DNA from: Coriobacteriia bacterium | Lineage (GTDB): Bacteria; Actinomycetota; Coriobacteriia; Coriobacteriales; UMGS124 | Assembly: GCA_963930185.1 (NCBI GenBank) | Contig: CAWVLT010000016.1 | Coordinates: 128,879 to 192,878, forward strand | DNA: 64,000 bases | Direction: 5' to 3' | Shown: positions 6,239 through 31,953 of the stretch, piece by piece | How positions within the stretch are numbered: position 1 is the first letter of the stretch | Layout of the letters: the number at the start of each line of letters is the position of its first letter | Notes under the pieces: model-generated | What the model saw: only the letters and a program-made list of their open reading frames with translations | Told to the model about the DNA's origin: nothing | Databases searched by the model: none | Program-made: the position numbers and the translations under genes

Positions 6239-7741
6239 CTACTCCCAGGGCTCCTCGGCGGCGGCGTTGGTGCCGGCGACGCGACCCATGGTCATTGCGC
6301 TGAGCACGGTGGAGCCGATCGTGGCGTTCCACTCGCACACCAAGCCTGCCGCATACAGGCCGGGGACGGGCTCAAGCGCCGACTCGCCACCCGCGATCAC
6401 CAGCCTAAGGGCCCGCGCGGAGGTGTCGATCTTGACGCCGCCCATGGTGGTTGAGGTGCTCTGGTACATCGCCACGGCATAGAAGGGCCCGACCATCGGC
6501 ACCAGGTACTCGGGGTCGCGACCGAAGTCGGCATCGAAGCCCTGCTCGCACATCTCGTTGTATCGCTCGACCGTCGCAACCAGCGCCTGCGGGTCAAGAC
6601 CCACCTGGGGCGCCAGCTCCTCGAGCGTCTCGGCGTACGCCCAGCCGGTGAGGGGCTGCGCCTCGACAAGAGCCTGGACGTCGGGATTGTCGCCCAGCAG
6701 CAAAATGGGCTGGAAGTCCTGTTCCACGGCCTTTGCCAGAATAGCGCGGTGAGGCATGGGATCGAAGTAGCGCGCCTCCTCGTTGTAGAAGCGCTGCGCG
6801 CCGGCGTCGAGCCACAGGCCGTGCAGGCGGCCGTCGTAGTTCACGTTGACGTAGTTGCCCACCATCATGCCGGCAAGCGTCGTGATCTGCGGGGGCTCGG
6901 CAAGCCGCGTGGTGAAGACGCCCGCACGCTGGGCGATCACGAAGCCGTCACCCGCACAGGCCGGGTGGGAGCCGGGGAACACGTAGCGGTTGCTGGGGCT
7001 CAGGGCAGCCAGCATCTGGGCACTGCCCGACTCGTCGCCGCAGGCCAGAACCACCGCACGGCGCGCCTTCACGCGAATAGCCGTCTCGCCCTGCAGCGCC
7101 TCGACGCCGATGACGCGCCCGCCCTCGTCCTGGATCAGGCCACTGACGATGGTCTCGACCAGGGTCTCGACGCCCTCTTGGGCCGCCACGTCCTGAAGCA
7201 CCTGCATCATGGCTGCGCCCTTGCCCACGACCTGGTGGATGAAGGGCTTGTCGGTGTACCCGAAGCGCGGGGCGGGCTCGGGCTCGAACTCGACGCCCAG
7301 GTCCTCGAGCCAGTCGATCGTCTCGCCGCCATGTTCCGCGTTGAAGCGGCTCACCTCGGGGTCACGCGCGGGATACCAGGCGGAGTTCTCGAAATACCAA
7401 GCCACGGCGTCCTCTACGGTGAGGTCGACACCCGCCGAGGCGGCAATTCGCGAGCCGGCGGCACCAAGGATGCCGTCGCACAGCATGGAGTCGCCACCGG
7501 GCGTCGAGGACTTCTCGAGCACCAGGACCTCGGCCCCTGCACGGGCAGCCTCCACGGCCGCCGAGAACGCCGCTGCGCCACCACCCACGATCACGACGTC
7601 CGCCTCGCGGTCCCAGGCGTCTTGGCCTGTTGCCTCGGTGCCGAGGGCACGGGTGGCACCCATCGAGGCGGCCGCCAGCGCAGTGCCGGCAGCAATGAGC
7701 GAGCGACGCGTACAAGCTGCGTTGATTGACGATGCGGACAT
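6239..7741 (-). CDS. Tat-exported FAD-dependent oxidoreductase, fumarate reductase/flavocytochrome-c flavoprotein family (reductase A)
   Basis: Twin-arginine signal MSASSINAACTRRSLIAAGTALAAASMGATRALG. Dinucleotide fold DVVIVGGGAAAFSAAVEAARAGAEVLVLEK. C-terminal VPGLYAAG motif of FAD_binding_2 enzymes. RBS GAAAGGGGAA. Confidence 0.85.
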   Translation of the reverse strand: MSASSINAACTRRSLIAAGTALAAASMGATRALGTEATGQDAWDREADVVIVGGGAAAFSAAVEAARAGAEVLVLEKSSTPGGDSMLCDGILGAAGSRIAASAGVDLTVEDAVAWYFENSAWYPARDPEVSRFNAEHGGETIDWLEDLGVEFEPEPAPRFGYTDKPFIHQVVGKGAAMMQVLQDVAAQEGVETLVETIVSGLIQDEGGRVIGVEALQGETAIRVKARRAVVLACGDESGSAQMLAALSPSNRYVFPGSHPACAGDGFVIAQRAGVFTTRLAEPPQITTLAGMMVGNYVNVNYDGRLHGLWLDAGAQRFYNEEARYFDPMPHRAILAKAVEQDFQPILLLGDNPDVQALVEAQPLTGWAYAETLEELAPQVGLDPQALVATVERYNEMCEQGFDADFGRDPEYLVPMVGPFYAVAMYQSTSTTMGGVKIDTSARALRLVIAGGESALEPVPGLYAAGLVCEWNATIGSTVLSAMTMGRVAGTNAAAEEPWE

Positions 7742-7953
7742 AGCGTTCCCCTTTCTGCCAGCGCCCGCGGCGGGCGCTCCCCATGCGGCTGACGCCCGCG
7801 ACGAACAGCCCGCGCCACAGGTTGTCCCGAGCGCACGGTCTCGTGATGCGCATAGAACTACCTGCGGCGATGCCTTTTTCGTTGCTCAGCCATCGTTAGC
7901 ATCACGATACGGGAACGCGCTTGGTCTGTCCATTTTGATTATGCGTATGGTAG

Positions 7954-7972
7954 TATAAGGTTGCGCCTTATA
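7954..7972. promoter_or_regulatory. Candidate LysR box in the divergent reductase A / LysR intergenic region
   Basis: TATAAGG-TTGCG-CCTTATA has perfect 7-bp arms and sits about 95 bp upstream of the LysR start, in an AT-richer stretch. Confidence 0.3.
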
Positions 7973-8065
7973 GTCGGCCATGCGGGGCAAAGGATGACGC
8001 CTGCAGCCACAGGCAGCAGGTCAAGGCGGTCAGGGAGGGAGGGCGCGCTCTTGAATGAGGCACAG

Positions 8066-8926
8066 ATGGAGTCGTTGGTGCGCACGATCGATCTCGGCAG
8101 CATCAACGCCGCCGCACGCGAGCTCTTCATCTCTCCCCCGTCGCTGCACCAGCGGCTCGGCACGCTCGAGGCAGAGCTGGGGTGCACGCTGCTCGAGCGC
8201 TGCCCGCGCGGAGTGCGCCCCACCGCGGAGGGCACGCGCATGTACGCCGCCTGCGTCGCATGCCTTGAGCAGCTGGCCGCCGCCCGGCACGACATCGCCA
8301 GGCTGCGAGACGAAAACGCCCTCCATGAGGTGCGCATCGGCGTGACCTGGCGGCCTTCGCTGCACACCTACTACGCCATCGAGGAACTCCACGCCAGCCA
8401 CTCCAACCTGGCCGTCAGCGCAGTGAAGGTTACCGAAAAGCCCCTGGTAAGCGCACTTCTTGATGGGGGCATCGACCTCTTCGAAAGCCCACGGCTCGCT
8501 GAGGACCCCGCAGGCCTCGCCTTCTGGCCGTTCGGCGAGGACGCTTACCGCTGCGTCTGCGGGCCCGACAGCCGCTGGGCAAGTCTCGACTTGGTGACGC
8601 TGCCCATGCTCGAGGGCGTGACGGTCTACGCAGGGTCAGACTACCGGGACTACCGCTCCTATCGCACGTGCGCGGCGGTGCAGCGGCTCTGCGCTCGGGA
8701 CAACTTCAAGGCAACCGCCTTCCCCACCGAGCGCATCGTGGCCGACTGCATGAGCGGTACGGCGGTGGTGCTGTTCCCCAGCAGCCGCGCCAACGACCTG
8801 TGCCCTCCCCTCGTGCACGTCCCCCTCGATATCCCGCTCGCGGAGTTCGGCGCATACACGCGCGAGCGCCCGACGGAAGGCGAGCTGGTGGTGGTCGAGG
8901 CGCTGCGGACGCAGGCTCTCAAATAA
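8066..8926 (+). CDS. LysR-family transcriptional regulator
   Basis: N-terminal wHTH MESLVRTIDLGSINAAARELFISPPSLHQRLGTLEAELGCTLLER plus a substrate-binding domain. ATG 8066 is preceded by GAGG; the track start at 7961 is probably too early. Divergent from reductase A. Confidence 0.85.
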   Translation: MESLVRTIDLGSINAAARELFISPPSLHQRLGTLEAELGCTLLERCPRGVRPTAEGTRMYAACVACLEQLAAARHDIARLRDENALHEVRIGVTWRPSLHTYYAIEELHASHSNLAVSAVKVTEKPLVSALLDGGIDLFESPRLAEDPAGLAFWPFGEDAYRCVCGPDSRWASLDLVTLPMLEGVTVYAGSDYRDYRSYRTCAAVQRLCARDNFKATAFPTERIVADCMSGTAVVLFPSSRANDLCPPLVHVPLDIPLAEFGAYTRERPTEGELVVVEALRTQALK

Positions 8927-9041
8927 GTCATGACAACTCCTCGTCAAACCAGGTCAAGATGATGTTCCGACGGCGTGTCCCTGAAGCCGGCAGTCTCACT
9001 CGGACAATTCACCACCGAGACGACGCGAGCGCAAGTCGCGA

Positions 9042-9461: not shown

Positions 9462-9523
9462 CGAGATCTCCTCCGCCCCCCGTCCGCAACCAACCCTGCC
9501 CACGTGGCAAGTACGCTTGCATT

Positions 9524-9542
9524 TAGGTAAGTACCTTACCTA
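9524..9542. promoter_or_regulatory. Candidate HxlR operator
   Basis: TAGGTAAG-TAC-CTTACCTA has perfect 8-bp arms. It lies in the AT-rich divergent region between the HxlR gene and the flavin reductase gene. Confidence 0.35.
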
Positions 9543-9619
9543 TAAATTAGTACTTATCATGACGCATGGATAGAAGGATACTACGAGATGCCATACATCA
9601 TCGCAGAGAAAGGACCACC

Positions 9620-11042: not shown

Positions 11043-11768
<726 letters not shown>

Positions 11769-16697: not shown

Positions 16698-16745
16698 CCG
16701 TACCCTACAGTACCGTACTCTAGAGTACGGTACTGTAGGGTACGG
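16698..16745. repeat. Perfect 48-bp palindrome
   Basis: CCGTACCCTACAGTACCGTACTCT|AGAGTACGGTACTGTAGGGTACGG, which I checked base by base to equal its own reverse complement. It contains the LuxR-B stop codon and ends 9 nt before the DUF234 ATPase start codon. Confidence 0.9.
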
Positions 16746-18360
16746 AGTCAAGAGCAGAATGTCCCCGTCCGACGCTAGGCGCCTCCATCGCTACCTGCCT
16801 CAGTTCACCTTGCGCCTCGCCCTGGGCCACGCCTGGCGATTCTCCGCCATCGAACGCCGCCTGCTCCACGAGGTCGATCAGCTCCTGCTGGGAGTGCACG
16901 CCCAGCTTGCGGTAGATGTGCCGCGCATGCGACTTCACGGTGTTGTAGCTCACGGTGAGCATGTCCTGGATGCGCTTGCCGCTGTATCCGTAGGTGAGCA
17001 GGCGCATCACCTCGCGCTCGCGATCGGTCACCCCATGCTCGCCGGCGAGGCGCACGCACGCCCGCTCGATGAGTTCCTCGCGCGAGGGCGCCATCTCGGT
17101 CGCCTGGATCTCGCGGGCCGGCACGACGCCCAGAATGGTCTGCTCGAAGGTGAATCCGCGCAGACCGACCAGCACGTAGGCAAACACGGCAAGGGCAACC
17201 ACGAGGGTCACATGGGAGGCAATGCCGGGATGCGTCCCGACGAGGCCGTTGAACGCATGTCCGCTGTCCGCGCCCGCCAGAAGCCCCAGGCTCTGGGCGA
17301 TGCTCCCACAAGCAAGGACGTAGACCGAGCCAACGGGGTTACGCCGACACAGCGCCGCAAGAGACACCCACAGAAGCACCGAAAAGCCCGCGCTACCCGC
17401 GCCAAGCAGGCCATTGGGCAAAAACTCGGGAACATGCGGCACGGCAATGGTGGCGAGTAGCCCGCCCATCATGAAGACAGCCGCCACAGCGAACAGGCCG
17501 TCTTCTGGCCGGCCCTTCTTGTGGTTCGCAATAAACAGCCACGCCGTGATGAGCGCGAGCACAACAAGTGGCAGCACGGTGGACATGGGCGTGTGTTGGT
17601 CATCGTTGAACGAGAGGGCAAGCCCGTAGGAGCCGGAGAATATGAAGATAAGCACGAACACCTGGTGAAACGGCGCCAGATACGAGCGAGGGTTCGCCAC
17701 GGCAAGATCGGTCACCACCCGGCTGTGCTCGACAAGACCCAGCGTGGGCCGGACGTAGCGCCACAGCAGGACATAGGGCACGATGCCCAGAATCACCGAG
17801 AGCACAAGTGCAACCACATAGCCAGGGACGGGCAGCAGCGTGATCAGCAGCTGGCTCACAAGCATGCTGCACGCCACCGTCACCACGGAGGTACGCTCGG
17901 GAGTGACGACAGCCAGCGCGATCCCAACAAAGTAGAAGACGAGCACGCCACCTGCGGAGCGCAGGACGTGGCCCACCGCCACCAGGATGGGATCGGCCGA
18001 CCACAGCCCCAGGATCAGCAGACCGGCAAGCGTGCCTGCAACGGAGGCGACCAGCGCCGGCCGGGGCCGCAGCGCCGACGGTCGGCGCAGAACAAGCAGG
18101 ATGATCACGAGCCCGAGCAGCGGGTGGACGAGCGTCTGGAACTCGCGGGCAAGCGGGCACACCGCGCTCGTCACGGGAAAGATGGCGTAGTTCAGGACCC
18201 ACGTGCGCAGCTGCGACATCACCAGGGCCAGGCCGCACACGACAGAGGCGGCACCCTGCCCCGCGGCCAAGTCGCGCCACCGCACCCCCACGGCGCCGCG
18301 CCCATCGCCGCCACCATCGGGGCGTCGGTCGTGTCCGTCTCGGGCCTCACCCATCGTCAT
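16720..18360 (-). CDS. Multi-TM LuxR-family transcriptional regulator (LuxR-B)
   Basis: About 10 hydrophobic helices are followed by a C-terminal GerE/LuxR HTH: DREREVMRLLTYGYSGKRIQDMLTVSYNTVKSHARHIYRKLGVHSQQELIDLV. ATG 18360 sits behind GAGGGAGG. Divergent from reductase B. Confidence 0.85.
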   Translation of the reverse strand: MTMGEARDGHDRRPDGGGDGRGAVGVRWRDLAAGQGAASVVCGLALVMSQLRTWVLNYAIFPVTSAVCPLAREFQTLVHPLLGLVIILLVLRRPSALRPRPALVASVAGTLAGLLILGLWSADPILVAVGHVLRSAGGVLVFYFVGIALAVVTPERTSVVTVACSMLVSQLLITLLPVPGYVVALVLSVILGIVPYVLLWRYVRPTLGLVEHSRVVTDLAVANPRSYLAPFHQVFVLIFIFSGSYGLALSFNDDQHTPMSTVLPLVVLALITAWLFIANHKKGRPEDGLFAVAAVFMMGGLLATIAVPHVPEFLPNGLLGAGSAGFSVLLWVSLAALCRRNPVGSVYVLACGSIAQSLGLLAGADSGHAFNGLVGTHPGIASHVTLVVALAVFAYVLVGLRGFTFEQTILGVVPAREIQATEMAPSREELIERACVRLAGEHGVTDREREVMRLLTYGYSGKRIQDMLTVSYNTVKSHARHIYRKLGVHSQQELIDLVEQAAFDGGESPGVAQGEAQGELRQVAMEAPSVGRGHSALDSVPYSTVL

Positions 18361-18691
18361 CAGCCTCCCTCGGCATCCCGCGAAGCACACTATGTCAGCG
18401 CGTCTCCACATGACAAGCATACACAAACCCTCGTGGCAACTGCATAGACAACACCACTACAACACCTTTCACCTGCGAAACCCATAGAAGCCTACCTAGG
18501 GGGTGATGGCCTGGGCGCACCGAACTCGAGTGCCTACCTGCGGGGTGATGACCCATCTCGCGGAGCCGGCGTATTGTGCGACTCGTCACGCCCGGCCGCC
18601 CCGCGTGACTCGCATGCCTGACAGTTCGCATGCGTGCATAGTGGGGCAGTCGAGTTGCACGGGCACGATCAATCCAAGAAAGGAAGCCTGT

Positions 18692-20680
18692 ATGTCTGAG
18701 TCAATCGCTCGCAGGGACTTCGTCAAGGGCGCCGCCGCCGTCACCGGCGCCGCCATGATCGCCGGCAGCGCCACCGTCGCGCTGGCCGAGGAGGCCGCAT
18801 CCTACACCGCCGGCACCTACACCGGCACGGGCGAGGGCGTGGGCACCGTCACCGCCACCGTCACGTTCGACGAGACCAGCATCACCGACGTCCAGATCGA
18901 CGTCTCGGGCGAGACCATCTTCGTGGGTGGCCAGATCGGCGAGGCCCTGCAGGGCTCGTTCATGGACGCCCAGAGCGACCAGATCGACGTCATCGCCGGC
19001 TGCACCATGACCTGCTACGGCGCCATGAAGGCCGTCAAGAGCTGCATCGCCCAGGCCAAGGGCGAGACCTTGCCCGAGGTGCCCACCTTCTCGATGGGCA
19101 GCGACGAGGACTGGCTGGGCGAGGAGCCCCAGATCGACGAGGCCCAGATCGCCGAGACCTGGGACACCGACATCCTGATCGTGGGCGCCGGCAACGCCGG
19201 CATGGCCGCTGCGGCCTACGCCGCCGAGAACGGCCTGAACTTCCGCGTCATCGACACCTACAACTCGCCGCAGGACACCCGTCACTGGTTCGGCGCTGTT
19301 GACTCCGCCGCCGCCCAAGCCGCCGGCTGCGAGCCCATGAACCGCCACAAGCTGCTCTCCGAGATCAGCCGCTACGCCTCGGGCAAGTGCAACCAGAGCG
19401 TCGTGAAGACCTGGATCAACGAGTCCGCCGCCCTGTACGACTTCGTCGCAGGCATCCTGGAGAACGACCCCTACAACTACACCTGCACGTTCACCAGCGG
19501 CGAGGCCGCCCGCTGGCCCGACGAGTGCAGCGAGGACAACACCGTCTACATGTTCCCCGAGATGGAGCACACCTACGTCGGCTCCGAGAAGGCGCGCAAC
19601 GTCGTGTTCCAGGAGGTCGTGGAGAAGGACGGCTACTCCGTCGACTTCAACACCACCCTGGTGAAGCTCGAGAAGAACGACGAGGGCCGCGTTACCGGCA
19701 TCATCGCCCAGAACATCCTGACCGGTGACCTCATCCGCATCAACGCCGCCTCCGGCGTGATCCTGGCATGCGGCGGCTACGAGGGCAACCCCTACATGAT
19801 GCAGCAGCTCGACCCCGAGAGCACCAGCGTCATCACCTGCACCAACGCCGCCCCTCGCTGCCGCGGCGTGGGCATCCGCGCGGCCATCTGGGCCGGTGCC
19901 GCTATGGACAAGGAGCCCGCGACGATGATCTTCGACCGCGGCCTGGTGGCCCCGGACGTGAATGCCGGCTACGTCGACAACGAGAAGGCCTTCGCCGGCA
20001 AGGACTGGCCGGGCACCCTCAAGCAGTTCAACTCCGGCACCCAGCCCTTCCTCAAGGTGAACCGCAACGGCGAGCGCTTCGCCAACGAGAGCAGCCCCTA
20101 CAACGACATCCTCTACGCAGGCGGCAACCAGCCCGGCGGCGTGTACTGCCAGGTCTTTGACGCCAACTACTACGAGGACGTGCTGCGCTTCTACACCATC
20201 GGCTGCTCGGCCGGCTCCCAGCAGGAAGGCGCCATGGAGAACAGCCTGGCCACCTACGAGCCGCAGGGCCTGGTGATGAAGGCCGACACCATCGAGGAGC
20301 TGGCCGAGAAGCTGGGCTTCGAGGGCGAGGCCAAGGACAACTTCCTGGCCACCGTCGAGCGCTACAACGAGCTCTTCGACGCGCAGGACGACGAGGACTT
20401 CGGCAAGCCCGCCATCCGCCTCTCGGAGATCCGCACCGCGCCGTTCTACGGCTGCTGGCTGGGCGGCTCGCTGCTGTGCACGATGCAGGGCATCGCCATC
20501 AACGGCGACTGTCAGGCGCTTGACAACGACCGCGCGCCCATCGAGGGCCTCTACGTCGTGGGCAACAACGCCGGCGGCATGTTCTCGGGCAACTACCCCT
20601 GCCTGATGCCCGGCCTGCGCTGCGGCAGCGCCCAGGTGCAGGGCATCCACGCCGTCAAGGTGCTCGGCGGCCTGGCGTAA
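18692..20680 (+). CDS. Tat-exported flavoprotein reductase with N-terminal FMN_bind domain plus FAD_binding_2 domain (reductase B; UrdA-like architecture)
   Basis: ATG 18692 follows AAGAAAGGAAG. Tat signal MSESIARRDFVKGAAAVTGAAMIAGSATVALA. FMN_bind-like YTAGTYTGTGEG...IDVIAGCTMTCYGAMKAV. FAD fold DILIVGAGNAGMAAAAYAAENG. C-terminal IEGLYVVGNNAGG. Confidence 0.85.
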   Translation: MSESIARRDFVKGAAAVTGAAMIAGSATVALAEEAASYTAGTYTGTGEGVGTVTATVTFDETSITDVQIDVSGETIFVGGQIGEALQGSFMDAQSDQIDVIAGCTMTCYGAMKAVKSCIAQAKGETLPEVPTFSMGSDEDWLGEEPQIDEAQIAETWDTDILIVGAGNAGMAAAAYAAENGLNFRVIDTYNSPQDTRHWFGAVDSAAAQAAGCEPMNRHKLLSEISRYASGKCNQSVVKTWINESAALYDFVAGILENDPYNYTCTFTSGEAARWPDECSEDNTVYMFPEMEHTYVGSEKARNVVFQEVVEKDGYSVDFNTTLVKLEKNDEGRVTGIIAQNILTGDLIRINAASGVILACGGYEGNPYMMQQLDPESTSVITCTNAAPRCRGVGIRAAIWAGAAMDKEPATMIFDRGLVAPDVNAGYVDNEKAFAGKDWPGTLKQFNSGTQPFLKVNRNGERFANESSPYNDILYAGGNQPGGVYCQVFDANYYEDVLRFYTIGCSAGSQQEGAMENSLATYEPQGLVMKADTIEELAEKLGFEGEAKDNFLATVERYNELFDAQDDEDFGKPAIRLSEIRTAPFYGCWLGGSLLCTMQGIAINGDCQALDNDRAPIEGLYVVGNNAGGMFSGNYPCLMPGLRCGSAQVQGIHAVKVLGGLA

Positions 20681-21529: not shown

Positions 21530-23182
21530 TTACGCCTTAAGGTCATCTCCGGCGGGCACGTAGCCGGTGCCGTCGCCCATAACAGACTCAACGATGTCAT
21601 CGATCGCAAAACGCGCACCCACGGCAGCAAAGCTCTGCTGCGAGCCAACGGCGACCAACACATCGTACATATAGCCATACAGTCCGCCTGCATCGCTACC
21701 ACAGGCATAGAGACCCTTAATGGCGCTGCCTTCGGGCGTTAGAACACGGCTGCGCTCGTCAACACGCAAGCCACCGATCGTAGTCATGAACACCGGGGTG
21801 GTCTTGACGCCGTAGAACGGGGCAGCCTTAACGGGAATGAGGTACTTCGGGTCCTTGAGGAAGTCGGAGTCGTAGCCGGCGTCACACAGCTCATTGTAGT
21901 GATCGACCGTGTCCTTGAGGGCGACCGGGTCAAGGCCCATCTGCTCAGCAAGCTCCTCGATGGTGTCGGCCTTCCAGACCTTGAATTCGTCACCCTGGAC
22001 GTAGCCCTCAACGAGCTCCATGCCGTCGGGGAAGGGAGTACCCACGGGAGCGTCTCCCGAGCACTCGCAGATGATGCCTTCGCACTGCTGCTTGAGGAAG
22101 TCGGTGTCCAGGATGTTGTAGCTTGCAACCTGGGTCGAGCGGCTCTCGCCATAGGCGACGAAGCTGTCTACGAGCCCCTCGCTGGTGAAGCGCTTGGCGC
22201 TCTCGTTAACCCAAAGCGTGGGGACGATGCCGACCAGGCAGCGAACGGGATGGGCCTCCTCGACGCGCTTGCCAGAAACCTCACTGTAGTCCGCCATGAC
22301 CGCACCGAGACGGAAGGTGTCGGCACCGGCAGCCATACCCATCAGGATGCAATCGCCGTCACGGCCGGGAGTGCCCTTCCAGGAGGTATAACCAGCGGAG
22401 AGATCCTCCTCTTCCTCGGAGATGAACCTCCAGCCGGTGTAAGTGTTCACCATCTCACGGTTACAGGGATAGCCGCCCGAGCACATAATGACGGCCTTTG
22501 TGTTGAACTGGACGCCCCTGCCGTCTTTGTCCGTAGCAATGACGCCGGCAACGGATCCATCCTCGGCCATAAGGAGCTGCTTGGCGGGCATCTCGGTATA
22601 GATCTGGGCGCCAGCAGCCTGGGCAGCCTCGGCGATGATAGCGCAGTGTCCGCCACGCTCAGTGTAGACATGCCAAGTAGGAACGACGCCCCAGCTCGAG
22701 CGGATGCCGCTGAAAGTCACGCCGTGATCCATGAGCCAGTCCACGGTGTCTCCGGCATGCTCGAGCCAACGACGGCAGATGCGTGGGTTGTTGGACCAGT
22801 GACCAAACTCCTCGATCTGCTGGAAGTAAGAGTCGGTGTCGTCGTCATATCCCTCCTCGAGCTGAAGTCTGGACATGCAACCGAACATGCCCTCGGCAGT
22901 GGCGGAGGTGCCGCCGATGTAGCCGAGCTTTTCGATCAGTGCGACGTTGAGACCGGCCTCCGCACCGGCGAGCGCGGCGCACAACCCAGACATGCCGGCA
23001 CCAATGATAACGACGTCGCATTCAATGGTCTGCTCGACCACAATCTGCTCCTCGGTGGGTTGGACAGCCTCCTCAGCACCCGCGAACCTGACCATGCCGG
23101 CCGCCTGAGTGCACAGCGCGGCAGCACCTGCCGCCGAGACAGCACCCTTCAAGAATGTACGGCGGTTCATGTCAGCAACCAT
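21530..23182 (-). CDS. Tat-exported FAD-dependent oxidoreductase, fumarate reductase family (reductase C)
   Basis: MVADMNRRTFLKGAVSAAGAAALCTQAAG (Tat signal); DVVIIGAGMSGLCAALAGAEAGLNVALIEK; C-terminal IKGLYACGSDAGG. RBS GAAAGGGG. GC is visibly lower than in neighbouring genes. Confidence 0.85.
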   Translation of the reverse strand: MVADMNRRTFLKGAVSAAGAAALCTQAAGMVRFAGAEEAVQPTEEQIVVEQTIECDVVIIGAGMSGLCAALAGAEAGLNVALIEKLGYIGGTSATAEGMFGCMSRLQLEEGYDDDTDSYFQQIEEFGHWSNNPRICRRWLEHAGDTVDWLMDHGVTFSGIRSSWGVVPTWHVYTERGGHCAIIAEAAQAAGAQIYTEMPAKQLLMAEDGSVAGVIATDKDGRGVQFNTKAVIMCSGGYPCNREMVNTYTGWRFISEEEEDLSAGYTSWKGTPGRDGDCILMGMAAGADTFRLGAVMADYSEVSGKRVEEAHPVRCLVGIVPTLWVNESAKRFTSEGLVDSFVAYGESRSTQVASYNILDTDFLKQQCEGIICECSGDAPVGTPFPDGMELVEGYVQGDEFKVWKADTIEELAEQMGLDPVALKDTVDHYNELCDAGYDSDFLKDPKYLIPVKAAPFYGVKTTPVFMTTIGGLRVDERSRVLTPEGSAIKGLYACGSDAGGLYGYMYDVLVAVGSQQSFAAVGARFAIDDIVESVMGDGTGYVPAGDDLKA

Positions 23183-23455: not shown

Positions 23456-24964
23456 CTAGATCGGGGCATCACTGGCATTGGAGCCCGAAGCTGGGTCAGG
23501 GTCAGGGTCAGGGTCAAGACCGTTCTCGCCTCCTTCGACCATATCGATGAGCTGTTGTCGCGTGTGAACCTTTAACTTCGCATAGATATGCTTGATGTGA
23601 GATGCGACGGTGTTCAGGGAGATGACGAGCTCGTCACGAATGAACGGAGCGCTCCTTCCCTTGACGAGAAGGGCCAGTATTTCCGTCTCACGTGGAGAGA
23701 GTCCATACGCGCGTGCAACCACCCCAAGGCGTTCTTCGAATACGCGGCGCTCATCCTCGGCCCTAGCCCCTTCATCAAGTTGGTTCCTGTCTTCGGCGCC
23801 GTCGAGTGCCTCCTTCGCTCCCCCATCTCGATTCGCCCCGCGCGCAGCAACGAGCGCAAGCGCGAATAGCAAGGCAAGCAGAACGATGCAGGACATGGCA
23901 TTAAACGATGGCGGGTCGTTCCGGGAAACACCCTCGGCCCAAAAACCCAAAGACAGCCCAATGAGACCGCTCGCATGATTTATGAGCCAGATTACGCCAA
24001 AGGTAAACGCCGCATTGCCAAACCCCCGCCCAACAAGACTGGCCGCATACAGAATCAGGAGGTACTGGCATAGCAACATAAGAGCGAAAGCAACGGCTCC
24101 CGCCAGTGACGGGGAGAGCCCGAGCCCGCACGCGACGACCGTCGCCACCAAGAAAGCCGAGGTGATTGTGCATATCGATCCGACGGAAAACCCCTCCGCA
24201 AATCGCATGAAGCCGACAAGAGCTACGATAAAGAGCAGGAGGCCGGCAAGCAATGTGATGTCCAAACCTGAACTCATGGAAGGAAGCACCACATGGTAGT
24301 TGATCAAATAGTACAAAATGGCGATTGGACCTCCAAGGCAGACAACCATTCGAGCCACGAACTTCGCAGTGAGGTCTATAGGGGCATGCTCGGTACGATC
24401 CGTTTCGCCATCATCCAGCTGCGAGACCCGCCCGAGGGCAAGCACGTACAGAATGCTTGCAACCGGGGCAAGCACCACGAGGATGAAACGACGGGCAGCA
24501 GCCGGAACGGAAAGGGCCACCGCAATCACCAGCGCCTGCGTCGTCGCAGAGGCAATTGCCGTTCGCTCGCCCATCTCTGTATCAAGTGCCGAATAGACGT
24601 CACCCCAGCTCACCCATAGCCATGCATTGGCGAGACTTGCCATCACCATCCCGCCGACAACCGCAAGGGGGCGTGACGCCAACAAGACAAGGAGCGACCC
24701 TATCGCGTTCACGAAACCGGCAGCCAAAGAAAGCGCCTCTCTGTGGGAGATCAAGTCCCGTTTATGGCTGGCAATCACAATTGCCAAAGTGCCCAGCGCA
24801 ACCGTGAGTGACGACACAATGCTGAGCAGAGGAAGACCGGGAGCCAGGCCGCTCAGGACAAAGTCATCGCCCCTGATGTAAAACATGCAAATTGACCATG
24901 CCTCAAGCAGACCATACCCGAGATAAGGAAAATAGACTGACAACCTCATACGCCACGTCCCCAT
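23456..24964 (-). CDS. Multi-TM LuxR-family transcriptional regulator (LuxR-C)
   Basis: A polytopic membrane domain is followed by LSPRETEILALLVKGRSAPFIRDELVISLNTVASHIKHIYAKLKVHTRQQLIDMV. The start is uncertain (ATG 24964 or 24949). It sits upstream of reductase C on the same strand. Confidence 0.8.
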   Translation of the reverse strand: MGTWRMRLSVYFPYLGYGLLEAWSICMFYIRGDDFVLSGLAPGLPLLSIVSSLTVALGTLAIVIASHKRDLISHREALSLAAGFVNAIGSLLVLLASRPLAVVGGMVMASLANAWLWVSWGDVYSALDTEMGERTAIASATTQALVIAVALSVPAAARRFILVVLAPVASILYVLALGRVSQLDDGETDRTEHAPIDLTAKFVARMVVCLGGPIAILYYLINYHVVLPSMSSGLDITLLAGLLLFIVALVGFMRFAEGFSVGSICTITSAFLVATVVACGLGLSPSLAGAVAFALMLLCQYLLILYAASLVGRGFGNAAFTFGVIWLINHASGLIGLSLGFWAEGVSRNDPPSFNAMSCIVLLALLFALALVAARGANRDGGAKEALDGAEDRNQLDEGARAEDERRVFEERLGVVARAYGLSPRETEILALLVKGRSAPFIRDELVISLNTVASHIKHIYAKLKVHTRQQLIDMVEGGENGLDPDPDPDPASGSNASDAPI

Positions 24965-25193
24965 ATCAGTGCCACACGCGTCCGACACGTCGATACATCC
25001 AGTGACACAATAGTGCCACTGAAACAGGATGTCACACAATTCCCTGAGCAACTCGATACGCCTGTATTTGGCGGACACGAACTTCGTCCCCCAAGAATCC
25101 CATATCTGCTATTGTTACGGTACAAACCCGGCCGATGCGCCGCCAGAGCCCAAACCGGACAGCCGCCGTCTCCCGCAAAGGCCAGGTCGCCCA

Positions 25194-26590
25194 ATGACAA
25201 CCCCGCACGTGAGCATCGAACAGCCAGGCACGTCATTCGTCCACAGGGCAAGGCGCGCCCGCTTCGCCCTGGCCGCGCTGGGATTCACCCTGTTCTACTC
25301 GGTCGCGGTCATCTTCTTCTACTACGAATGGCTGTTCACGACGGGATCCCCCGTCGACCCACTCGCATACGGCGCCACGCTTAACGTCACGTTGCTGCTG
25401 GCAGCGCTGGCCGAGCAGCAAATCCTCCCTCGCCTCAAGGACGGGCGCGCCCTGCTTGCGGTCGGCGGCGCGGCGTATCTCCTCGCCTGCTGTCTGCTCG
25501 TTGCGTCGGGCAACGGGGCGCGCGTCGCCGTCGTGTGCGCGGCCGGGGCATGCGCGGGCGTGGGTGCGGCGCTACTCGCCTCGCTTTGGCTCGACAGGCT
25601 CGGCTGCCTCTCCAACCGCGAGCCCGCCTACGTGCTGGGAATCGCGTCGCTGGCCAGCATCCCCATATCGGTGCTTGTGGGCCTTGCTCCCCTCTTCCCC
25701 ATGGCCGCCGCATGCGTCCTGCTGCTTGCCGGGTCATGCGCCTTACTCGTCAAGCTCGGAGCGGCAGGCGCCCTTGATATGGAAGGCGCACAAAGAGGGG
25801 CGGTACGAGACACGCACACAGAAACGCAGGCTGGAGAGCAGGCAGAAGGGCAGATCGGAGTGCCAGCCGTCGGTACCGCGGCCCCCGACGTCCCCGCGCA
25901 GGAACGGCAAGGCGCGGGAACAAGCCCCTGGTCGCGCCTCGTCGTGCCGCTAGCGTACGTACGTGGCCATCCTCTCGTTTGTGTACGGAACGCTCGATGA
26001 CGTGGCCATGACCACCTCAGTCACCTCTCCGGACGACTCGGGCATCGTCTCCCAGGTCTGCAGCCTCGTGACCGTGGCCGTGTTTCTCGCCTACGTGCAC
26101 TTCGACGGCCATCGGTACGCGACCCTCCTCAACGTCGCTGTGGGCATCGTGGCCACCGGGCTCATCTTCCTGCCGTTCCTCGGATACAGCTATAACCTGC
26201 TGCTCATGGTGCTCACCCACATCGGCTGGGAGCTATCGCTGCTCGTGTCGTACGCGCTTGCCGTGGAGGTCGCCCGCGGCGATCGACGTCGCCTTCTCGG
26301 CGTGGGCGCGCTGGTGTTCGCGGCCCCGCGCCCGTTCGTCATCGCCGGATCGGCCGTCGTCAACCTCATCGCCGGCACGGGCTCCCGAGATGGCGGCGCA
26401 GGTTCGGCTGCCGGCAACCTCGAGTTCGCCCACATGGTCGTCATCGCCTGCGTGCTGCTCTACGTGACCATGCTCGCCATCTGGCTGCTCACGAATCGCG
26501 AGAAACGCAGGGCCGAGCGAGACCTTGCCCGTCGCGACGAGGTCATCCGTCGCTTCGTCACCGCACGCGACGACCTCTACGCCCTAGCAT
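25194..26590 (+). pseudogene. Decayed multi-TM LuxR-type regulator (LuxR-D): frameshifted and lacking the HTH domain
   Basis: The membrane domain is split between track ORFs 25029-26000 and 25963-26799. Removing one GTAC of the GTACGTAC at 25955-25962 restores ...VVPLAYVAILSFVYGTLDD.... No GerE HTH follows the last TM/linker (..RRDEVIRRFVTARDDLYALACEL). Confidence 0.65.
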
Positions 26591-26653
26591 GCGAGTTGCA
26601 ACGACACCGCGCGCATCGCCGCACCGGCGCTCGAGCAGATCCCCCAGCGCATC

Positions 26654-28273
26654 GTGGAGACGCAGGGCCTGGGCGTCAACACGGTGGCAGGCGCCACATT
26701 CACCTCGATCGGCATCGTCAACGCCGTGGCGGACTGCGTCGAGCAGGCCGGCGGGTCGTCGGACGAGCTGTTCTCCACCGGCAAGCCCCAGCCCAATGAT
26801 GCGGTTGAGGAGCTCGAGGCCGACGTCGTGGTCGTGGGCGCCGGCGCGGCCGGCATGGGCGCCGCCATCGCGGCGGCGCAGCAGGGTGCCAGCGTCATCG
26901 TGTTTGAGAAGAACGCCAACATCGGCGGCAACTGCCTGGTGTCGGGCGGCTACCTCGAGTACATCACCGCGCCGGACGACGCCCGCCCCGAGATGACCGA
27001 GGCGCTCGACCGCTACGTGGAGGAGGTGCTCGCCAGCGACCTGGTGACCTCCACCGACCCTGACCTGGTGGAGCAGGTGCTTCAGCAGTACGAGGACCAC
27101 AAGGCATCGGGCTCGACCAAGCTCTTCGACTCGCCCGAGTTCTACGCGCTCGACTACACGGCGACCTCCGGCGAGGGCCTGACCCCGGCCGACTACCTGC
27201 CCGTCGGCTACAACATCGCCGAACTCAACGGCTGGATGACCGACCTGGGCTTCGAGTGGGCCACGCCCACCCACGAGATCACCGGCCACCTCTATCCCCG
27301 CTGGTCAAATCCCACCGAGGGCAACGCGGGCGAGGGGTACTTCGACTTCTTCGACCGCGTGCTCGCAGACGACACCCTGCAGGTCAGCGTGTACCTGGCG
27401 ACGCCGGCAACCTCGCTCGTCACCGAGGGCGGCGCGGTGAGCGGCGTGAACGCCCAGGCGGCAGACGGCACCATCTACGTCATCCGCGCGCCCAAGGTCA
27501 TCCTTGCAAGTGGCGGTTTCTCCGGTAGCCCCGACCTGCTGCGCCAGTACAACACGCAGTGGAGCTATCCGGAGGGTAACATCCCCACGACCAACGTCAA
27601 CGGCCACACGGGTGACGGCATCAAGATGGCAACCGAGCTGGGAGCCGCGACCGTCGACATGGGCAACCAGATGCTCTTCCCGCTCAACGAGCCGACCACC
27701 TATTCCGCCGACTACGTGTCGGGCACCTTCGCCGACAGCCCGCTCATCAACAAGGAGGGCAAGCGGTTCGTCGACGAGACCTGCGACCGCTTCACCATGG
27801 CGGCGGCGCTCATGGAGCAGACCGACAACCTGTGCTACATGGTGAGCGACGCGGCGAGCACCTACGTGATGCCCTCGACCCCCGGCGAGGAGTCGCTCAT
27901 CGAGCACGGCCGGCTCTACCGCGCCGACACCCTCGAGGAGCTTGCTGAGCAGATCGGCGTGCCTGCCGACGCGTTCGTTGCCGAGATCGAGCGCTACAAC
28001 GGCTTCTGCGACGCCGGGCAGGACGATGACTTTGGCCGCTACCTCTTTGACGAGCTGAGCCCCGTGCGCGAGGCGCCCTTCTACGCCTCGCCCGCGACGT
28101 GGGCCGCACACATCACCATCGGCGGCCTGGTGACCGACGAGAACTTCCAGGTGCTCACCGAAGCGGGCGACGCCATCGAAGGGCTGTATGCGGCCGGCGA
28201 GGTGCGCAACGGCATCTGCGGCGTGAGCAGCATTGCCGACGGTATGGCGGCAGGCAAGATCCCGCTGGCGTAA
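26654..28273 (+). pseudogene. 5'-truncated flavoprotein reductase (reductase D): signal peptide and first half of the FMN_bind domain are missing
   Basis: The frame opens after TAG 26585 as HASCNDTARIAAPALEQIPQRIVETQGLGVNTVAGATFTSIGIVNAVADCVEQAG, which is the C-terminal half of an FMN_bind domain. An intact FAD domain follows (DVVVVGAGAAGMGAAIAAAQQGASVIVFEK ... IEGLYAAGE). There is no Tat signal and no ATG; the only possible start is GTG 26654. It could still yield a cytoplasmic protein. Confidence 0.55.
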
Positions 28274-28301
28274 GCCGGGAGGCGGCCAGAGCGCAGACAA
28301 A

Positions 28302-28371: not shown

Positions 28372-28478
28372 ATAGCTACGCAGTGCCAGAATCGCGCGTA
28401 ATGCACGCCCCGCACATTCCACGCAAGCAAAAACTATCCCGTCGGCCTTAAAATACGAGAAGATACCGCCGGGAATGG

Positions 28479-30245
28479 ATGGGGCACATGCAAGAGAAGC
28501 AAACAGGTCAAGAGGAGCGGAGAAACCAGAGCGACGCGTCACAAGACGTGTGCCGCAGCCCTCGTGTGCAGCGTCCTAAACAAGCAGATCAGCTAGCGCG
28601 GAAAGACGCAAGTACCCTCCAGAAACTCACAGGCGACCTCAAGCAGCTGCGTCTGCGCCATCTGGGATTCGCCTTCTTCTTCGCGTGGATGTCGATGTTC
28701 ATGCATGGACCCCAGCTCATCCTTGGCACCTGGGACGGCAGTGCGCAACCCATGATGACGGAGCACGCCTCGTTTGTCCCCCTTGCCACGCTGACCGTCG
28801 CGTCGGCGCTCACCATGCTGTTCTACGGCATCGCGAGGAACGTCCGTCCGCCGATAAGCCTGCGCAGGAGCACTCGGGCTTCCGCATCCGCCCTGATCAT
28901 CATCGGGACAGTCCTCAGCAGCCTGAGCATTGCGACTGGCATGTGGATCGCCAATCTTCTGCCTCTCCCAGCCAGCAGCGCGTCGCTCATCGCATCCGCC
29001 ATGGCATCGGCAGCCTCGGCGATAGCCGGCGTCGGCATGGCCAAGACCATGGTGATGTGGGGCGAGTTCTACGGCTGCATTGGCTCTCGGAGAGCTTCGG
29101 TATACATCTGCGCGTCGGTGTTCCTCTCCTCTGCGCTCTACTACCTCACCGCCTATCTGTCACCCATCCCCAGACTCGTTGCCATATGCCTGTATCCCGT
29201 GCTCTCGATGGCCCTGCTCACAAAGAACCAGCCTGAGATAGACATCTGGTACTCCGGCTCGCTGGGCCAGGAGGGCGGGGCCGGCACCTCCGACCCAAAC
29301 GGGCCACGTCGCAACCCCCTGCCCACAAAGATTCTCGTGTGCGCGGCGCTGTACGGCGCGGTTTCGGGTCTGGTCGCAGGCTCCTCGCTCATCTTTGACG
29401 CCGCGGCGGGCGTCACCGACAGCCCACAGGCCCAGCAAGCCAGCAGCATCGACCCCATCGCGGGAATGGTGGTGGCGGTCCTGCTTCTTCTGGGCATCGC
29501 CCTGTTTGGAAGCAGCATCGATCGAGGCTTCACCTACCGGCCGACGATCCTCATCATGGTGGTGGGCTGCGCCCTCCTGCCCTTTGCCGGGGGACTCCAC
29601 GGCCAGATCGCAACGGCAATCGTCGGCGGGGGCTACATGTTCTTCTACGCGCTCTCGTGGATCCTGTACTCAGACATTGCCTACCGGGCGAAAATTCCCG
29701 GCCACCGGGTCTTCTCCTGGGGCCGCGTGGCGGGAGCGGGAGGGTATGCCGCCGGCATGGCGGTCAGCGCCGCATGCTCGCGGATGCTTGGCTTCGAGGT
29801 ATTCACCCCCACGCTTGTAGCGTTCATAACCATGGGACTGCTCGTGCTCACCGCAGTCTTCGTCCTTGACGAGAAGGACGTGCTCAGCGGCTGGGGAAAG
29901 CTCAAAGATATCAGTCCAGAAAAGGCGGGTCAGCAGGCATCCGATCGCGTCTGCGATGCAAATAAGCGTCAGGAAAGCCCGAATGCCGTAATCTCCCGTG
30001 CATTCGCTGACCAGCAGCTCACCAAGCGAGAGTGCGAGATTCTCATTCACCTGCTCAAGGGCCGCAGCCTCCCACGCATCGGCGAGGACCTGGGCATCGC
30101 CTATACGACTGTGAACAGCCACGTCGCCAGCATCTATGCAAAGTGCGGGGTCCACTCTCGCCAGGAACTCATCGACATGGCAGAGGCCCTTGTCGAACAA
30201 ACGAGTGACGAATTATACGAGACGAGGTGCCAGTCGGCCTCATAG
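28479..30245 (+). CDS. Multi-TM LuxR-family transcriptional regulator (LuxR-E)
   Basis: A polytopic membrane domain is followed by LTKRECEILIHLLKGRSLPRIGEDLGIAYTTVNSHVASIYAKCGVHSRQELIDMA. Upstream of reductase E on the same strand. Exact start uncertain. Confidence 0.85.
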   Translation: MGHMQEKQTGQEERRNQSDASQDVCRSPRVQRPKQADQLARKDASTLQKLTGDLKQLRLRHLGFAFFFAWMSMFMHGPQLILGTWDGSAQPMMTEHASFVPLATLTVASALTMLFYGIARNVRPPISLRRSTRASASALIIIGTVLSSLSIATGMWIANLLPLPASSASLIASAMASAASAIAGVGMAKTMVMWGEFYGCIGSRRASVYICASVFLSSALYYLTAYLSPIPRLVAICLYPVLSMALLTKNQPEIDIWYSGSLGQEGGAGTSDPNGPRRNPLPTKILVCAALYGAVSGLVAGSSLIFDAAAGVTDSPQAQQASSIDPIAGMVVAVLLLLGIALFGSSIDRGFTYRPTILIMVVGCALLPFAGGLHGQIATAIVGGGYMFFYALSWILYSDIAYRAKIPGHRVFSWGRVAGAGGYAAGMAVSAACSRMLGFEVFTPTLVAFITMGLLVLTAVFVLDEKDVLSGWGKLKDISPEKAGQQASDRVCDANKRQESPNAVISRAFADQQLTKRECEILIHLLKGRSLPRIGEDLGIAYTTVNSHVASIYAKCGVHSRQELIDMAEALVEQTSDELYETRCQSAS

Positions 30246-30432
30246 GTTTCATACGAGCGTCCCATCTAACCCAGGCGCGCCAGACAGCTCCGCGCATGGA
30301 GGCAAAATCGTATGCTTCATACCATCCGCTGCGGGCTATCGTGCGTTTCAATTGTCTTTGCACGCAGGCCGACGCGGAACGCCGAAAGCACCGCAAGCCG
30401 CCTGCAATCCAAAGACTGAAAGGGGACCGATC

Positions 30433-31953
30433 ATGAGCACCACTTGCACGCGCCGCGACCTCGTCGCCGGCGGAGCGGCTTGCGCCCTCGGCACCGCCGC
30501 CCTCACGATGGCAGGCAACGCACTCGCAGAGGAAAGCGCCACCAGCCCCGACATCACGTGGGACATGGAGGCCGATCTCGTCGTCGTTGGCTCGGGCGGT
30601 GGCGTCGCCGGTGCCATCACGGCCGCCGAGGCTGGCCTTGAGGTCATCGTTCTTGAGAAGCTCGACATCCTGGGCGGCTCTTGCGCCATGCACAGCGGCG
30701 TCGTGGCCTGTGGTGGCGGCACGTCGCTGCAGCAGGAAGCTGGCATCGAGGATACGCCTGAGCAGTACTTCGACTATCTGATGGCATGCGCCAAGGGACA
30801 GGCCAACGAGGCACTCGTCAAGGCGATCGCCAACGAGGTGCCCCAGAACTTCGAGTGGCTGCGTGGCCTGGGCGTTCCCTTCACCACCGAGTGGTTGTAT
30901 TACACCGGTCCGGAAGAGGAGCCCTACTGCACGGCCGTGACTCCCGCCGTCAAGCACGGAGCCCAGTGCCCGCCCGATGAGGAGCACCCGCTCACCGGCC
31001 CGGTCATCCACGGGTACGTGATCGACGAGGCCGAGGCCCAGGGCGTCCAGATCATCCCCGGCACGGCCGCGAAGCACCTCATCACCAACGAGGCCGGCGA
31101 GGTCATCGGCGTGATCGCCGACCAGGGTGGCACCGCGATCAATGTCAAGGCACGCAAGGGCGTCATCCTCAACGCGGGTGGCATGTGCAACAACCCCGAG
31201 ATGCTCGCCCAATACATGCGCTTCGGCGCGATGCGCATCGCGGCAGGCACGCAGGGCGCCACGGGCGACGGCATCAAGATGGGTCAGGAGATCGGCGCCG
31301 ACGTGGTGAACATGCACGAGTCGCTCGTCTCGCTCAACACCCCCGTCGACTTTGGCACCACGACACGCGGCAAGCCTCGTGATTGCTTCCCCAGCATCCT
31401 GGTCAACAAGTACGGCCAGCGTTTCGTGAACGAGGACTACCACTCCGACACCGTTGGCAAGCTTGCCCAAGGGCAGGAAGACGGCTACGTCTATCAGATC
31501 TTCGACACCGTGGGCTACGAATCGGCGGCCGAGGCCGACCGCGAGGCACTTGCCCAGGCCGACACCATCGAGGAGCTTGCCGAGCAGCTTGGCATCCAGG
31601 CAAGCGGACTCGCCGCCACCCTGGAGCAGTGGAACGCAAGCGCCGCCAACGGCGAGGATCCCATGTTCGGCAAGACGGGTGGCACCGTCGCCCCGCTGAA
31701 CCCGCCGTTCTATGGCCAGCAGGTGTGGGCATACGCCTTGGTTGCTCACTTCGGCGGCCTCAAGGTCAATGAGAAGTGCAACGTCATCAACGTCTTTGGC
31801 GAGCCGATCCCTCGCCTGTACGCCTGCGGCATCGACGCCGGCGGCTGGATGGGCCGTCAGTATCCCGGCAGCGGCACGGCCGTGGGTGGCTCCTACTCGA
31901 TGGCGCGCATTGCCGCACGTGAGATCATCGCGCTGGAAAGCTGGGAGGCGTAA
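30433..31953 (+). CDS. Tat-exported FAD-dependent oxidoreductase, fumarate reductase family (reductase E)
   Basis: ATG 30433 follows GAAAGGGGA. MSTTCTRRDLVAGGAACALGTAALTMAGNALA (Tat signal); DLVVVGSGGGVAGAITAAEAGLEVIVLEK; C-terminal IPRLYACGIDAGG. The 99-codon extension in the track ORF overlaps LuxR-E and looks non-coding. Confidence 0.85.
   Translation: MSTTCTRRDLVAGGAACALGTAALTMAGNALAEESATSPDITWDMEADLVVVGSGGGVAGAITAAEAGLEVIVLEKLDILGGSCAMHSGVVACGGGTSLQQEAGIEDTPEQYFDYLMACAKGQANEALVKAIANEVPQNFEWLRGLGVPFTTEWLYYTGPEEEPYCTAVTPAVKHGAQCPPDEEHPLTGPVIHGYVIDEAEAQGVQIIPGTAAKHLITNEAGEVIGVIADQGGTAINVKARKGVILNAGGMCNNPEMLAQYMRFGAMRIAAGTQGATGDGIKMGQEIGADVVNMHESLVSLNTPVDFGTTTRGKPRDCFPSILVNKYGQRFVNEDYHSDTVGKLAQGQEDGYVYQIFDTVGYESAAEADREALAQADTIEELAEQLGIQASGLAATLEQWNASAANGEDPMFGKTGGTVAPLNPPFYGQQVWAYALVAHFGGLKVNEKCNVINVFGEPIPRLYACGIDAGGWMGRQYPGSGTAVGGSYSMARIAAREIIALESWEA

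Follow-up and report, generated by a model that had tools for sequence, protein, structure and literature searches.

In a 64,000-nucleotide stretch of a Coriobacteriia bacterium genome (assembly GCA_963930185.1, contig CAWVLT010000016.1, positions 128,879 to 192,878), hereafter called the window, five genes for flavoproteins of the fumarate-reductase superfamily lie within 26 kb, each next to a regulator gene or what is left of one. We consider it probable that they represent the 'respiratory flavin reductase plus adjacent regulator' arrangement of Eggerthellaceae, with four modules intact and one dead, and that they work as proposed below. Each intact module consists of a soluble flavin adenine dinucleotide (FAD) enzyme with a twin-arginine translocation (Tat) signal, together with a LysR-type regulator (module A) or a membrane-tethered LuxR (modules B, C and E). 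The remaining one, reductase D with its regulator LuxR_D, has recently turned into a pair of pseudogenes: one deletion of about 0.74 kb joined the sensor gene to the reductase gene out of frame, the sensor also suffered a frameshift, and at least one sister strain keeps reductase D intact.

The window is GC-rich (about 0.64), so that long spurious open reading frames (ORFs) are common; we kept only ORFs with a coding-type GC content at third codon positions (GC3) and scanned these against Pfam. Five FAD_binding_2 (PF00890) genes were found between 6239 and 31953, scoring 117–187 bits for a gathering cut-off of 20.4 (E = 1e-33 to 8e-55), well beyond chance, with coding-type GC3 values of 0.75–0.94. 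The same scan gave no PF00890 gene in the rest of the window (32–64 kb). Little et al. (10.1101/2022.12.26.521950) give 65 PF00890 genes per genome for Eggerthella lenta; with uniform spacing of 65 genes in a genome taken as ~3.6 Mb, about 0.46 would be expected per 26 kb, and the five found are therefore genuinely enriched in this region. The array is interrupted: about 7.8 kb (8927–16719) separate the A–LysR pair from the B–E cluster, and the genes there (for HxlR, a flavin reductase, an ATP-binding cassette (ABC) exporter of the MacB type and ATPase_2/DUF234) are unrelated to it.

A sequence-only reading of this DNA had counted five such paralogs in 26 kb, four of them with clear twin-arginine signals, and both counts are borne out. 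A twin-arginine motif followed by a hydrophobic stretch is present in A (TRRSLI), B (ARRDFVKG), C (NRRTFLKG) and E (TRRDLV), B and C also having weak Pfam TAT_signal matches; no such motif is seen in the translation of D. Two architectures occur: B and D combine FMN_bind with the FAD domain, and A, C and E have the FAD domain alone. In B, FMN_bind (PF04205, 29 bits for a cut-off of 22) is placed between the signal and the FAD domain. Reductase A begins with MSASSINAACTRRSLIAAG..., its ATG preceded by the Shine-Dalgarno sequence GAAAGGGG, and the N-terminus of C is MVADMNRRTFLKG. From the position of the Tat motif and a Shine-Dalgarno sequence 6–9 nt upstream (GAAAGGGG or GAAAGGAAG), the real starts of B and E were placed within their longer ORFs at the coordinates of Table 1: B starts with MSESIARRDFVKG behind GAAAGGAAG, E with MSTTCTRRDLVAGG behind GAAAGGGG. 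Both starts agree with the protein calls of public assemblies, 662 aa for B and 506 aa for E; the gene for the identical 662-aa protein is called in metagenome contigs, and the exact 506-aa protein is found in a public collection.

Table 1. Features of the reductase–regulator array (positions within the window)
Feature	Position	Strand	Description
Reductase A	6239..7741	-	500 aa, Tat signal, FAD_binding_2 only; PF00890 E = 1e-50
LysR-type regulator	7961..8926	+	Divergent from A, 219-bp intergenic region; PF00126 HTH_1 E = 3e-16
LuxR_B	16720..18426	-	Polytopic LuxR/GerE regulator, divergent from B; PF00196 E = 3e-15, residues 467-519, 55.8 bits
Reductase B	18692..20680	+	662 aa, Tat signal, FMN_bind, FAD_binding_2; ORF 18503-20680; PF00890 E = 1e-33
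Reductase C	21530..23182	-	550 aa, Tat signal; PF00890 E = 1e-51; TAT_signal E = 2e-4
LuxR_C	23456..25078	-	Polytopic LuxR/GerE, 273 bp upstream of C, same strand; PF00196 E = 1e-14, residues 460-514, 53.9 bits
LuxR_D remnant	25194..26595	+	Membrane domain only; frameshift near 25960; last ~70 codons (GerE HTH) gone
Deletion junction	26592..26597	+	...GCATGCGAG/TTGCAACGAC...; break 26594/26595; at most 2 nt microhomology
Reductase D remnant	26594..28273	+	Starts mid-FMN_bind; ORF 26654-28273; PF00890 E = 1e-50
LuxR_E	28479..30245	+	Polytopic LuxR/GerE, 187 bp upstream of E, same strand; PF00196 E = 2.5e-15, residues 513-568, 56.3 bits
Reductase E	30433..31953	+	506 aa, Tat signal, PRK07121 / Δ4-(5α)-ketosteroid-dehydrogenase-like branch; ORF 30136-31953; PF00890 E = 8e-55

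The layout of the regulators is as that reading had described it: A is divergent from the LysR gene and B from LuxR_B, C and E are downstream of their LuxRs, and D is downstream of a decayed one. Adjacency of reductase and regulator thus holds for all five, the LuxR_D remnant included. Its description of the sensors as polytopic membrane proteins fused to GerE also fits LuxR_B, LuxR_C and LuxR_E. Each carries a C-terminal GerE helix-turn-helix (HTH; 54–56 bits for a cut-off of 23.5) behind 8–13 hydrophobic segments, two Kyte-Doolittle scans giving 11/13 for LuxR_B, 10/11 for LuxR_C and 8/10 for LuxR_E, numbers compatible with the 10–12 transmembrane (TM) helices of the E. lenta LuxR family. 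They resemble one another around the HTH only (36–42% over ~100 aa), a pattern also described for that family, whose sensor domains are less than 20% identical (Dong et al. 2022, PMC9734109). LuxR_B likely starts at the ATG at 18360, which follows a GGGAGG Shine-Dalgarno sequence. The LysR of module A reaches 28.3 bits for PF03466 LysR_substrate (cut-off 28), and a 9+9 nt palindrome lies at 7760–7778 in the intergenic region that it shares with reductase A.

Beside LuxR_B lies a gene for an archaeal-type ATPase with a winged helix (ATPase_2/DUF234, 15259–16689, minus strand). It begins 30 bp past the LuxR_B stop on the same strand and is therefore probably co-transcribed with LuxR_B; the same pairing occurs in two metagenome contigs, L001 and L002.

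Homologous pairs have been studied in E. lenta. There, knockout of the 12-TM LuxRs DadR, HcdR or CadR abolishes the substrate-specific induction of the co-localised reductase, an effect that was complemented, and no cross-regulation was seen; strain DSM 2243 encodes 83 TM-LuxRs, 50 of which adjoin flavin-dependent enzymes (PMC9734109). PF00890 enzymes with a signal peptide are respiratory reductases in Eggerthellaceae, their induction being substrate-specific and predictive of enzyme specificity, and 64 E. lenta reductase genes neighbour transmembrane regulators (10.1101/2022.12.26.521950).

By analogy with these systems, we propose that the membrane domain of each LuxR recognises one particular small molecule located at or within the membrane, whereupon its C-terminal HTH would activate the promoter of the adjacent reductase gene. 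The reductase, folded and loaded with FAD, would be exported by the Tat pathway to the outer face of the membrane, where it would take electrons from the respiratory chain and reduce the sensed molecule, most likely at a C=C bond that is in conjugation with a carbonyl or an aryl group. For B, electrons would pass through the enzyme's own FMN domain, probably flavinylated by ApbE; A, C and E would draw on electron partners encoded elsewhere. Module D was formerly a unit of this sort, its reductase being of the FMN_bind plus FAD type seen in UrdA. As the five paralogues diverged long ago and their active sites differ, different substrates are expected for them.

Several points weigh against this proposal. 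The function would be carried over from relatives that share domain architecture only, the reductases being ~25–35% identical to characterised ones and the LuxR sensors unalignable, and the counts of hydrophobic segments come from crude Kyte-Doolittle scripts and are not topology predictions. Flavinylation of FMN_bind by ApbE provides an electron entry point and has the motif [S/T]GA[S/T] (PMC10979944); the corresponding site of B, VIAGCTMT (~19170–19200, residues ~160–170), reads AGCT instead. There is no cytochrome, ApbE or quinol dehydrogenase gene in the array. Pfam scans revealed no apbE in the whole window and no FMN_bind in A, C and E, and no CxxCH-rich ORF was found, none between 5 and 33 kb having more than one CxxCH. 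With no electron-donor partner in the array, we infer the respiratory link, and the donors of A, C and E must be encoded elsewhere. Scans for sigma-70 promoters and intrinsic terminators over 16–32.5 kb gave the same counts as shuffled controls, and short inverted repeats in the intergenic regions did not define an operator. Lastly, several reductases are cross-induced by related cinnamates (Little et al., 10.1101/2022.12.26.521950), so that 'private' regulation need not be strict.

Module D shows what such a unit looks like after a recent loss. The LuxR_D remnant is made up of two hydrophobic ORFs (25029–26000 and 25963–26799) upstream of D, and neither has any Pfam match, GerE included. With the intact LuxR orthologues L005 (496 aa) and L006 (493 aa) as queries, tblastn alignments run in two frames and end at residue 426 and 424, respectively, which corresponds to position 26595 of the window. 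With the reductase orthologue, the alignment begins at residue 83 of 641, corresponding to position 26594, in another frame than LuxR_D. The D ORF retains only the last 24 positions of the FMN_bind profile (54–77 of 77).

The missing DNA was located by blastn against two contigs of sister strains, L011 and L012, which carry longer members of the 90%-identity cluster of D and whose identity to the flanks of the deletion is 91–98%. Window positions 25152–26595 match 804–2244 of L011 and positions 26594–28400 match 2986–4791, leaving out 741 bp (L011 2245–2985); positions 26363–26595 match 1–236 of L012 and positions 26597–28398 match 988–2789, leaving out 751 bp (L012 237–987). In L011 the deleted DNA encodes a GerE ORF; in P0013, a protein of the same species from the 90%-identity cluster of D, it encodes the Tat signal and the first half of FMN_bind. 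P0013 is intact, with 663 aa, the sequence MSRRTLVG and a full FMN_bind. From the module studied here the deletion took the DNA-binding domain of LuxR_D and the intergenic region, and it deprived D of its Tat signal as well as half of its FMN_bind. Since D is truncated at its 5' end, its Tat signal is truly missing and not just hard to make out.

An assembly artefact was considered as the source of the truncation and rejected: two independent metagenome assemblies, L001 and L002, carry the identical junction and align with the window at 99.93–99.95% identity over 21.6 kb in a single high-scoring segment pair. In these long-read assemblies reductase E and the MacB-type permease are in pieces (L001 1228–2750 and 18104–21365), both being intact in the window; with 8–9 small indels in 21.6 kb at 99.9% identity, such gene splits are most likely assembly indel errors.

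Compared with the intact allele, the D remnant shows a ratio of non-synonymous to synonymous divergence (pN/pS) of 0.13, from 48 differences that are synonymous and 20 that are non-synonymous, which indicates that most of the divergence is older than the loss and that the deletion is recent. This low ratio, along with an intact ORF of 539 codons and a GC3 of 0.92, might also be taken to mean that the remnant still works, as a cytoplasmic enzyme started at the GTG at 26654 or, in the case of the truncated sensor, as a decoy. We regard that as highly improbable: a low pN/pS is expected anyway if the deletion is recent, no Shine-Dalgarno sequence or promoter region precedes the GTG, and the ORF begins within a domain. 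The Tat signal has been lost together with half of the FMN domain, and the conserved Asp beside the flavinylation site (AGAT in the intact allele P0013, TGAT in the D orthologues) is now Asn; other lesions are found in the same module of a sister strain. The latter concern contig L011 (logan:ERR11834846), which keeps the 0.74 kb but has frame changes of its own at ~1970–2029, 2854 and ~4452–4485, in LuxR_D and at both ends of D. They suggest independent decay of the D module, short-read assembly errors being the other explanation.

Outside this species, D orthologues are 61–69% identical, ~600–640 aa long when counted from the Met of the Tat motif, and have both a Tat motif and a whole FMN_bind. 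Their hosts are Gordonibacter faecis, Eggerthellaceae 24-137, an Adlercreutzia metagenome-assembled genome (MAG), an Enterorhabdus MAG, Raoultibacter (including R. timonensis) and Eggerthella sinensis. A LAGC lipobox directly follows the Tat motif in the orthologues of Gordonibacter faecis, Raoultibacter timonensis and Eggerthella sinensis (L004, L008 and L009), suggesting that these are Tat-exported lipoproteins; L005 and L006 have G-GGC there, and the intact same-species allele P0013 is without the lipobox Cys (…LLGAKAMAASA…).

A LuxR_D orthologue stands directly upstream of the D orthologue in five of the seven loci of other genera (Gordonibacter faecis, Eggerthellaceae 24-137 and the Adlercreutzia, Enterorhabdus and Raoultibacter MAGs), despite differing surroundings, and this retained pairing supports functional coupling. 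It also bears on the alternative that the regulators are not private at all, adjacency being a by-product of dense gene families and each regulator controlling other reductases or several of them. With 83 TM-LuxRs and 65 PF00890 genes in E. lenta, a number of such neighbours would be found in any case; several reductases respond together to related cinnamates (Little et al.), and hcdR is not directly adjacent to hcdh (PMC9734109). We nevertheless find this alternative unlikely. All five reductases have a regulator as immediate neighbour in a suitable orientation, either divergent or directly upstream on the same strand, and the three E. lenta TM-LuxRs tested, three out of three, control the co-localised enzyme without cross-regulation. 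The idea put forward by the sequence-only reading, of inducible modules each meant for a different extracytoplasmic electron acceptor, is partly supported: it agrees with what the E. lenta pairs do, and it would apply to four modules, not five, as the last is no longer intact.

The active sites bear on which molecules these modules may act on. Searches of the PDB gave Shewanella Fcc3 (1D4D, 1.5e-39) as the closest match of reductase A, and Shewanella flavocytochrome c3 fumarate reductases as the closest solved relatives of B (1e-16) and C (9.5e-32). Urocanate reductase UrdA (6T85) matches A, C, D and E at 5e-26 to 8e-43, the intact D allele being the closest to it at 7.7e-43, and it does not reach the 1e-10 cut-off for B; the kinship to UrdA that had been suggested for the array is thereby confirmed by sequence for four of its members. 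None of the five reductases reached an NCBIfam equivalog or subfamily cut-off: the top match of C is vinyl phenol reductase (285 bits, cut-off 600) and that of E is PRK07121.1-3 (255 bits, cut-off 481).

At the position of the carboxylate-clamp arginine (GANRLGG; R544/545 of Fcc3), pairwise and MAFFT alignments of the C-terminal segments show Ala for A and Tyr for B, C and E; D has a Ser or a gap there. For the proton-donor arginine, D has an aligned Arg (DETCDRF against EELERRD) and E a His or Ser, with A ambiguous; the His of HHTMGG is mostly lost in the five reductases. A complete two-arginine active site of the UrdA/fumarate reductase kind is present in none of them. Both arginines are conserved only in the clade that contains UrdA, with Tyr in three other clades that include cinnamate reductases (Little et al., 10.1101/2022.12.26.521950). 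This clade pattern and the replacement of the clamp arginine in all five imply that none is a fumarate or urocanate reductase.

The closest match of reductase E in the PDB is the 3-ketosteroid Δ4-(5α)-dehydrogenase of Rhodococcus (4AT0), aligned end to end at 1.1e-54, which also has Tyr at the clamp-arginine position. Such a match to a dehydrogenase is part of the case for a different role of all five enzymes, namely catabolic or detoxifying dehydrogenases resembling ketosteroid or tricarballylate dehydrogenase, with regulators that would control a catabolic or stress response. PF00890 takes in KstD, TcuA and NadB as well as reductases, NCBIfam models of KstD and TcuA match all five below their cut-offs, and no electron-transfer partner is encoded nearby. 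Even so, we think this role quite improbable. Members of the superfamily with obvious non-respiratory roles are cytosolic and have no signal peptide (Little et al., 10.1101/2022.12.26.521950), and four of the five have Tat signals. FMN_bind, an extracytosolic electron-entry domain, is part of B and of the ancestral D. Eggerthellaceae, moreover, are strict anaerobes and are not known to offer an acceptor to a dehydrogenase on the periplasmic side.

Returning to E as a respiratory reductase, its Tat signal and anaerobic host suggest that it would work in the reductive direction. In the C-terminal GGY-ASG segment it has the same Tyr and Ser as 4AT0; at Tyr-319 of 4AT0, which we take to be the third catalytic residue, the residue of E is His, preceded immediately by a Tyr. 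Van Oosterwijk et al. (2012) reportedly described what these 4AT0 residues do. Resting in part on such roles, the comparison points weakly to a steroid or enone as the substrate of E. We mention as a long shot that E could be a Tat-exported, extracytoplasmic and respiration-linked reductive counterpart of the 3-ketosteroid Δ4-(5α)-dehydrogenase, induced by LuxR_E, whose substrate would be a Δ4-3-keto steroid, a bile acid or some comparable cyclic enone; with the strain-specific death of D, the array would then display within-species turnover of modules that transform host metabolites.

The reductases are 24–31% identical to one another, in keeping with the sequence-only reading, which had called them diverged; the C-terminal LYA.G motif that it noted is present in A, C, D and E, but B has LYVVG. 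Five similarly built units inside 26 kb could bring to mind a recent tandem duplication of a single reductase–regulator unit. The 24–31% pairwise identity rules this out, and we give such an origin next to no chance: the sensor domains cannot be aligned, domain architectures and regulator families are of two kinds each, orientations are mixed, and D orthologues occur in unrelated contexts in other genera.

Other features of the window lie between or around the modules. Between module A and the B–E cluster, a gene for an HxlR-family regulator (9042–9503, minus strand) is divergent from one for a Flavin_Reduct-domain protein (9566–10183, plus strand); this pair is a separate small redox module outside the reductase array. 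The convergent genes B and C are separated by an 849-bp non-coding gap (20681–21529), where tblastn detected no protein remnant and Rfam gave no match; a GC-rich hairpin with a 14-bp stem (20755–20787) follows the stop of B. More generally, no gene remnants were found in the non-coding gaps, this one included, and there were no Rfam matches in the whole window. Upstream of the array, at 4182–5796 on the minus strand, a HipA-like kinase toxin (HipA_C and Couple_hipA, 420 aa) is preceded by a small HTH_31/HTH_3 ORF (5437–5796), forming a hipBA-type toxin–antitoxin pair in the stretch of lowest GC content in the window (0.58). Downstream, Pfam matches outline a peptide-uptake island (32141–54753, minus strand) with SBP_bac_5 paralogues (32141–34027, 34131–35891, 41890–43533 and 45926–47662), M14 carboxypeptidase-like paralogues (43571–45085, 47695–49182 and 49205–50629) and an Opp/Dpp-type ABC transporter (50706–54753).

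The layout, the regulator family and the induction logic of such arrays are already published (Dong et al. 2022; Little et al.), and the array leaves current understanding unchanged. What is added here are exact gene boundaries, two architectures, active-site classes, and evidence that one of the five pairs was recently made a pseudogene by a deletion, while a sister strain retains an intact allele. If our proposal is true, the window provides four further sensor–reductase pairs, each combining a biosensor with an enzyme for some molecule from the diet, the host or a drug; the regulator alongside gives an experimental handle, since substrates could be sought by induction screening. Compared with the intact alleles of sister strains, the dead D module illustrates on a small scale how gain and loss between strains make drug and metabolite transformation variable within a species.

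Among known systems, the cardiac glycoside reductase Cgr2 of E. lenta had been named as a relative of the array. The likeness holds only at the level of the superfamily: Cgr2 is also a Tat-exported PF00890 flavoprotein, it has a LuxR-type regulator in its cluster, and it reduces an α,β-unsaturated carbonyl. Cgr2 is unique to cgr+ E. lenta, its closest homologues are less than 28% identical, it is co-transcribed with the multihaem NapC/NirT-type cytochrome Cgr1, and it requires [4Fe-4S] clusters (Koppel et al. 2018, PMC5953540). The reductases of the array are not Cgr2, being set apart by this published description and by the absence of a CxxCH-rich ORF, as of a cytochrome partner, between 5 and 33 kb. 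The UrdA (6T85–6T88) and Fcc3-type (1D4D, 1QJD and 1QO8) structures of Shewanella share a fold family with the reductases of the array, as judged from sequence matches at E = 1e-16 to 8e-43. The UrdA architecture, FMN_bind plus FAD_binding_2, is common to B and the ancestral D; unlike the Shewanella fumarate reductases, the enzymes described here have no haem domain. With respect to the Rhodococcus jostii enzyme 4AT0, E differs by its Tat signal.

On the side of the regulators, LuxR_B, LuxR_C and LuxR_E resemble the E. lenta LuxRs with 10–12 TM helices (DadR, HcdR and CadR) in having a C-terminal PF00196 HTH behind an N-terminal domain that is probably polytopic, with roughly 10–13 hydrophobic segments. 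In both cases the sensor domains of paralogues are unalignable, the host is a member of the Coriobacteriia and a gene for a Tat-exported reductase is adjacent; a LysR may take part in E. lenta too (DadS), as in module A. DadR, HcdR and CadR control molybdopterin catechol dehydroxylases, whereas the regulators described here adjoin flavin reductases, and one of them, LuxR_D, has lost its HTH; the TM-LuxRs adjacent to flavin enzymes in E. lenta were counted (50) but none was tested by Dong et al. (PMC9734109). A parallel among the enzymes is provided by the reductases of Little et al. (UrdA, IrdA, CrdA-D and others), which like those of the array combine PF00890 with a signal peptide and a neighbouring transmembrane regulator. 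Their arsenal shows the same deep paralogy, with less than 26–32% identity between clades, and the same Tyr in place of the C-terminal Arg that we find in B, C and E.

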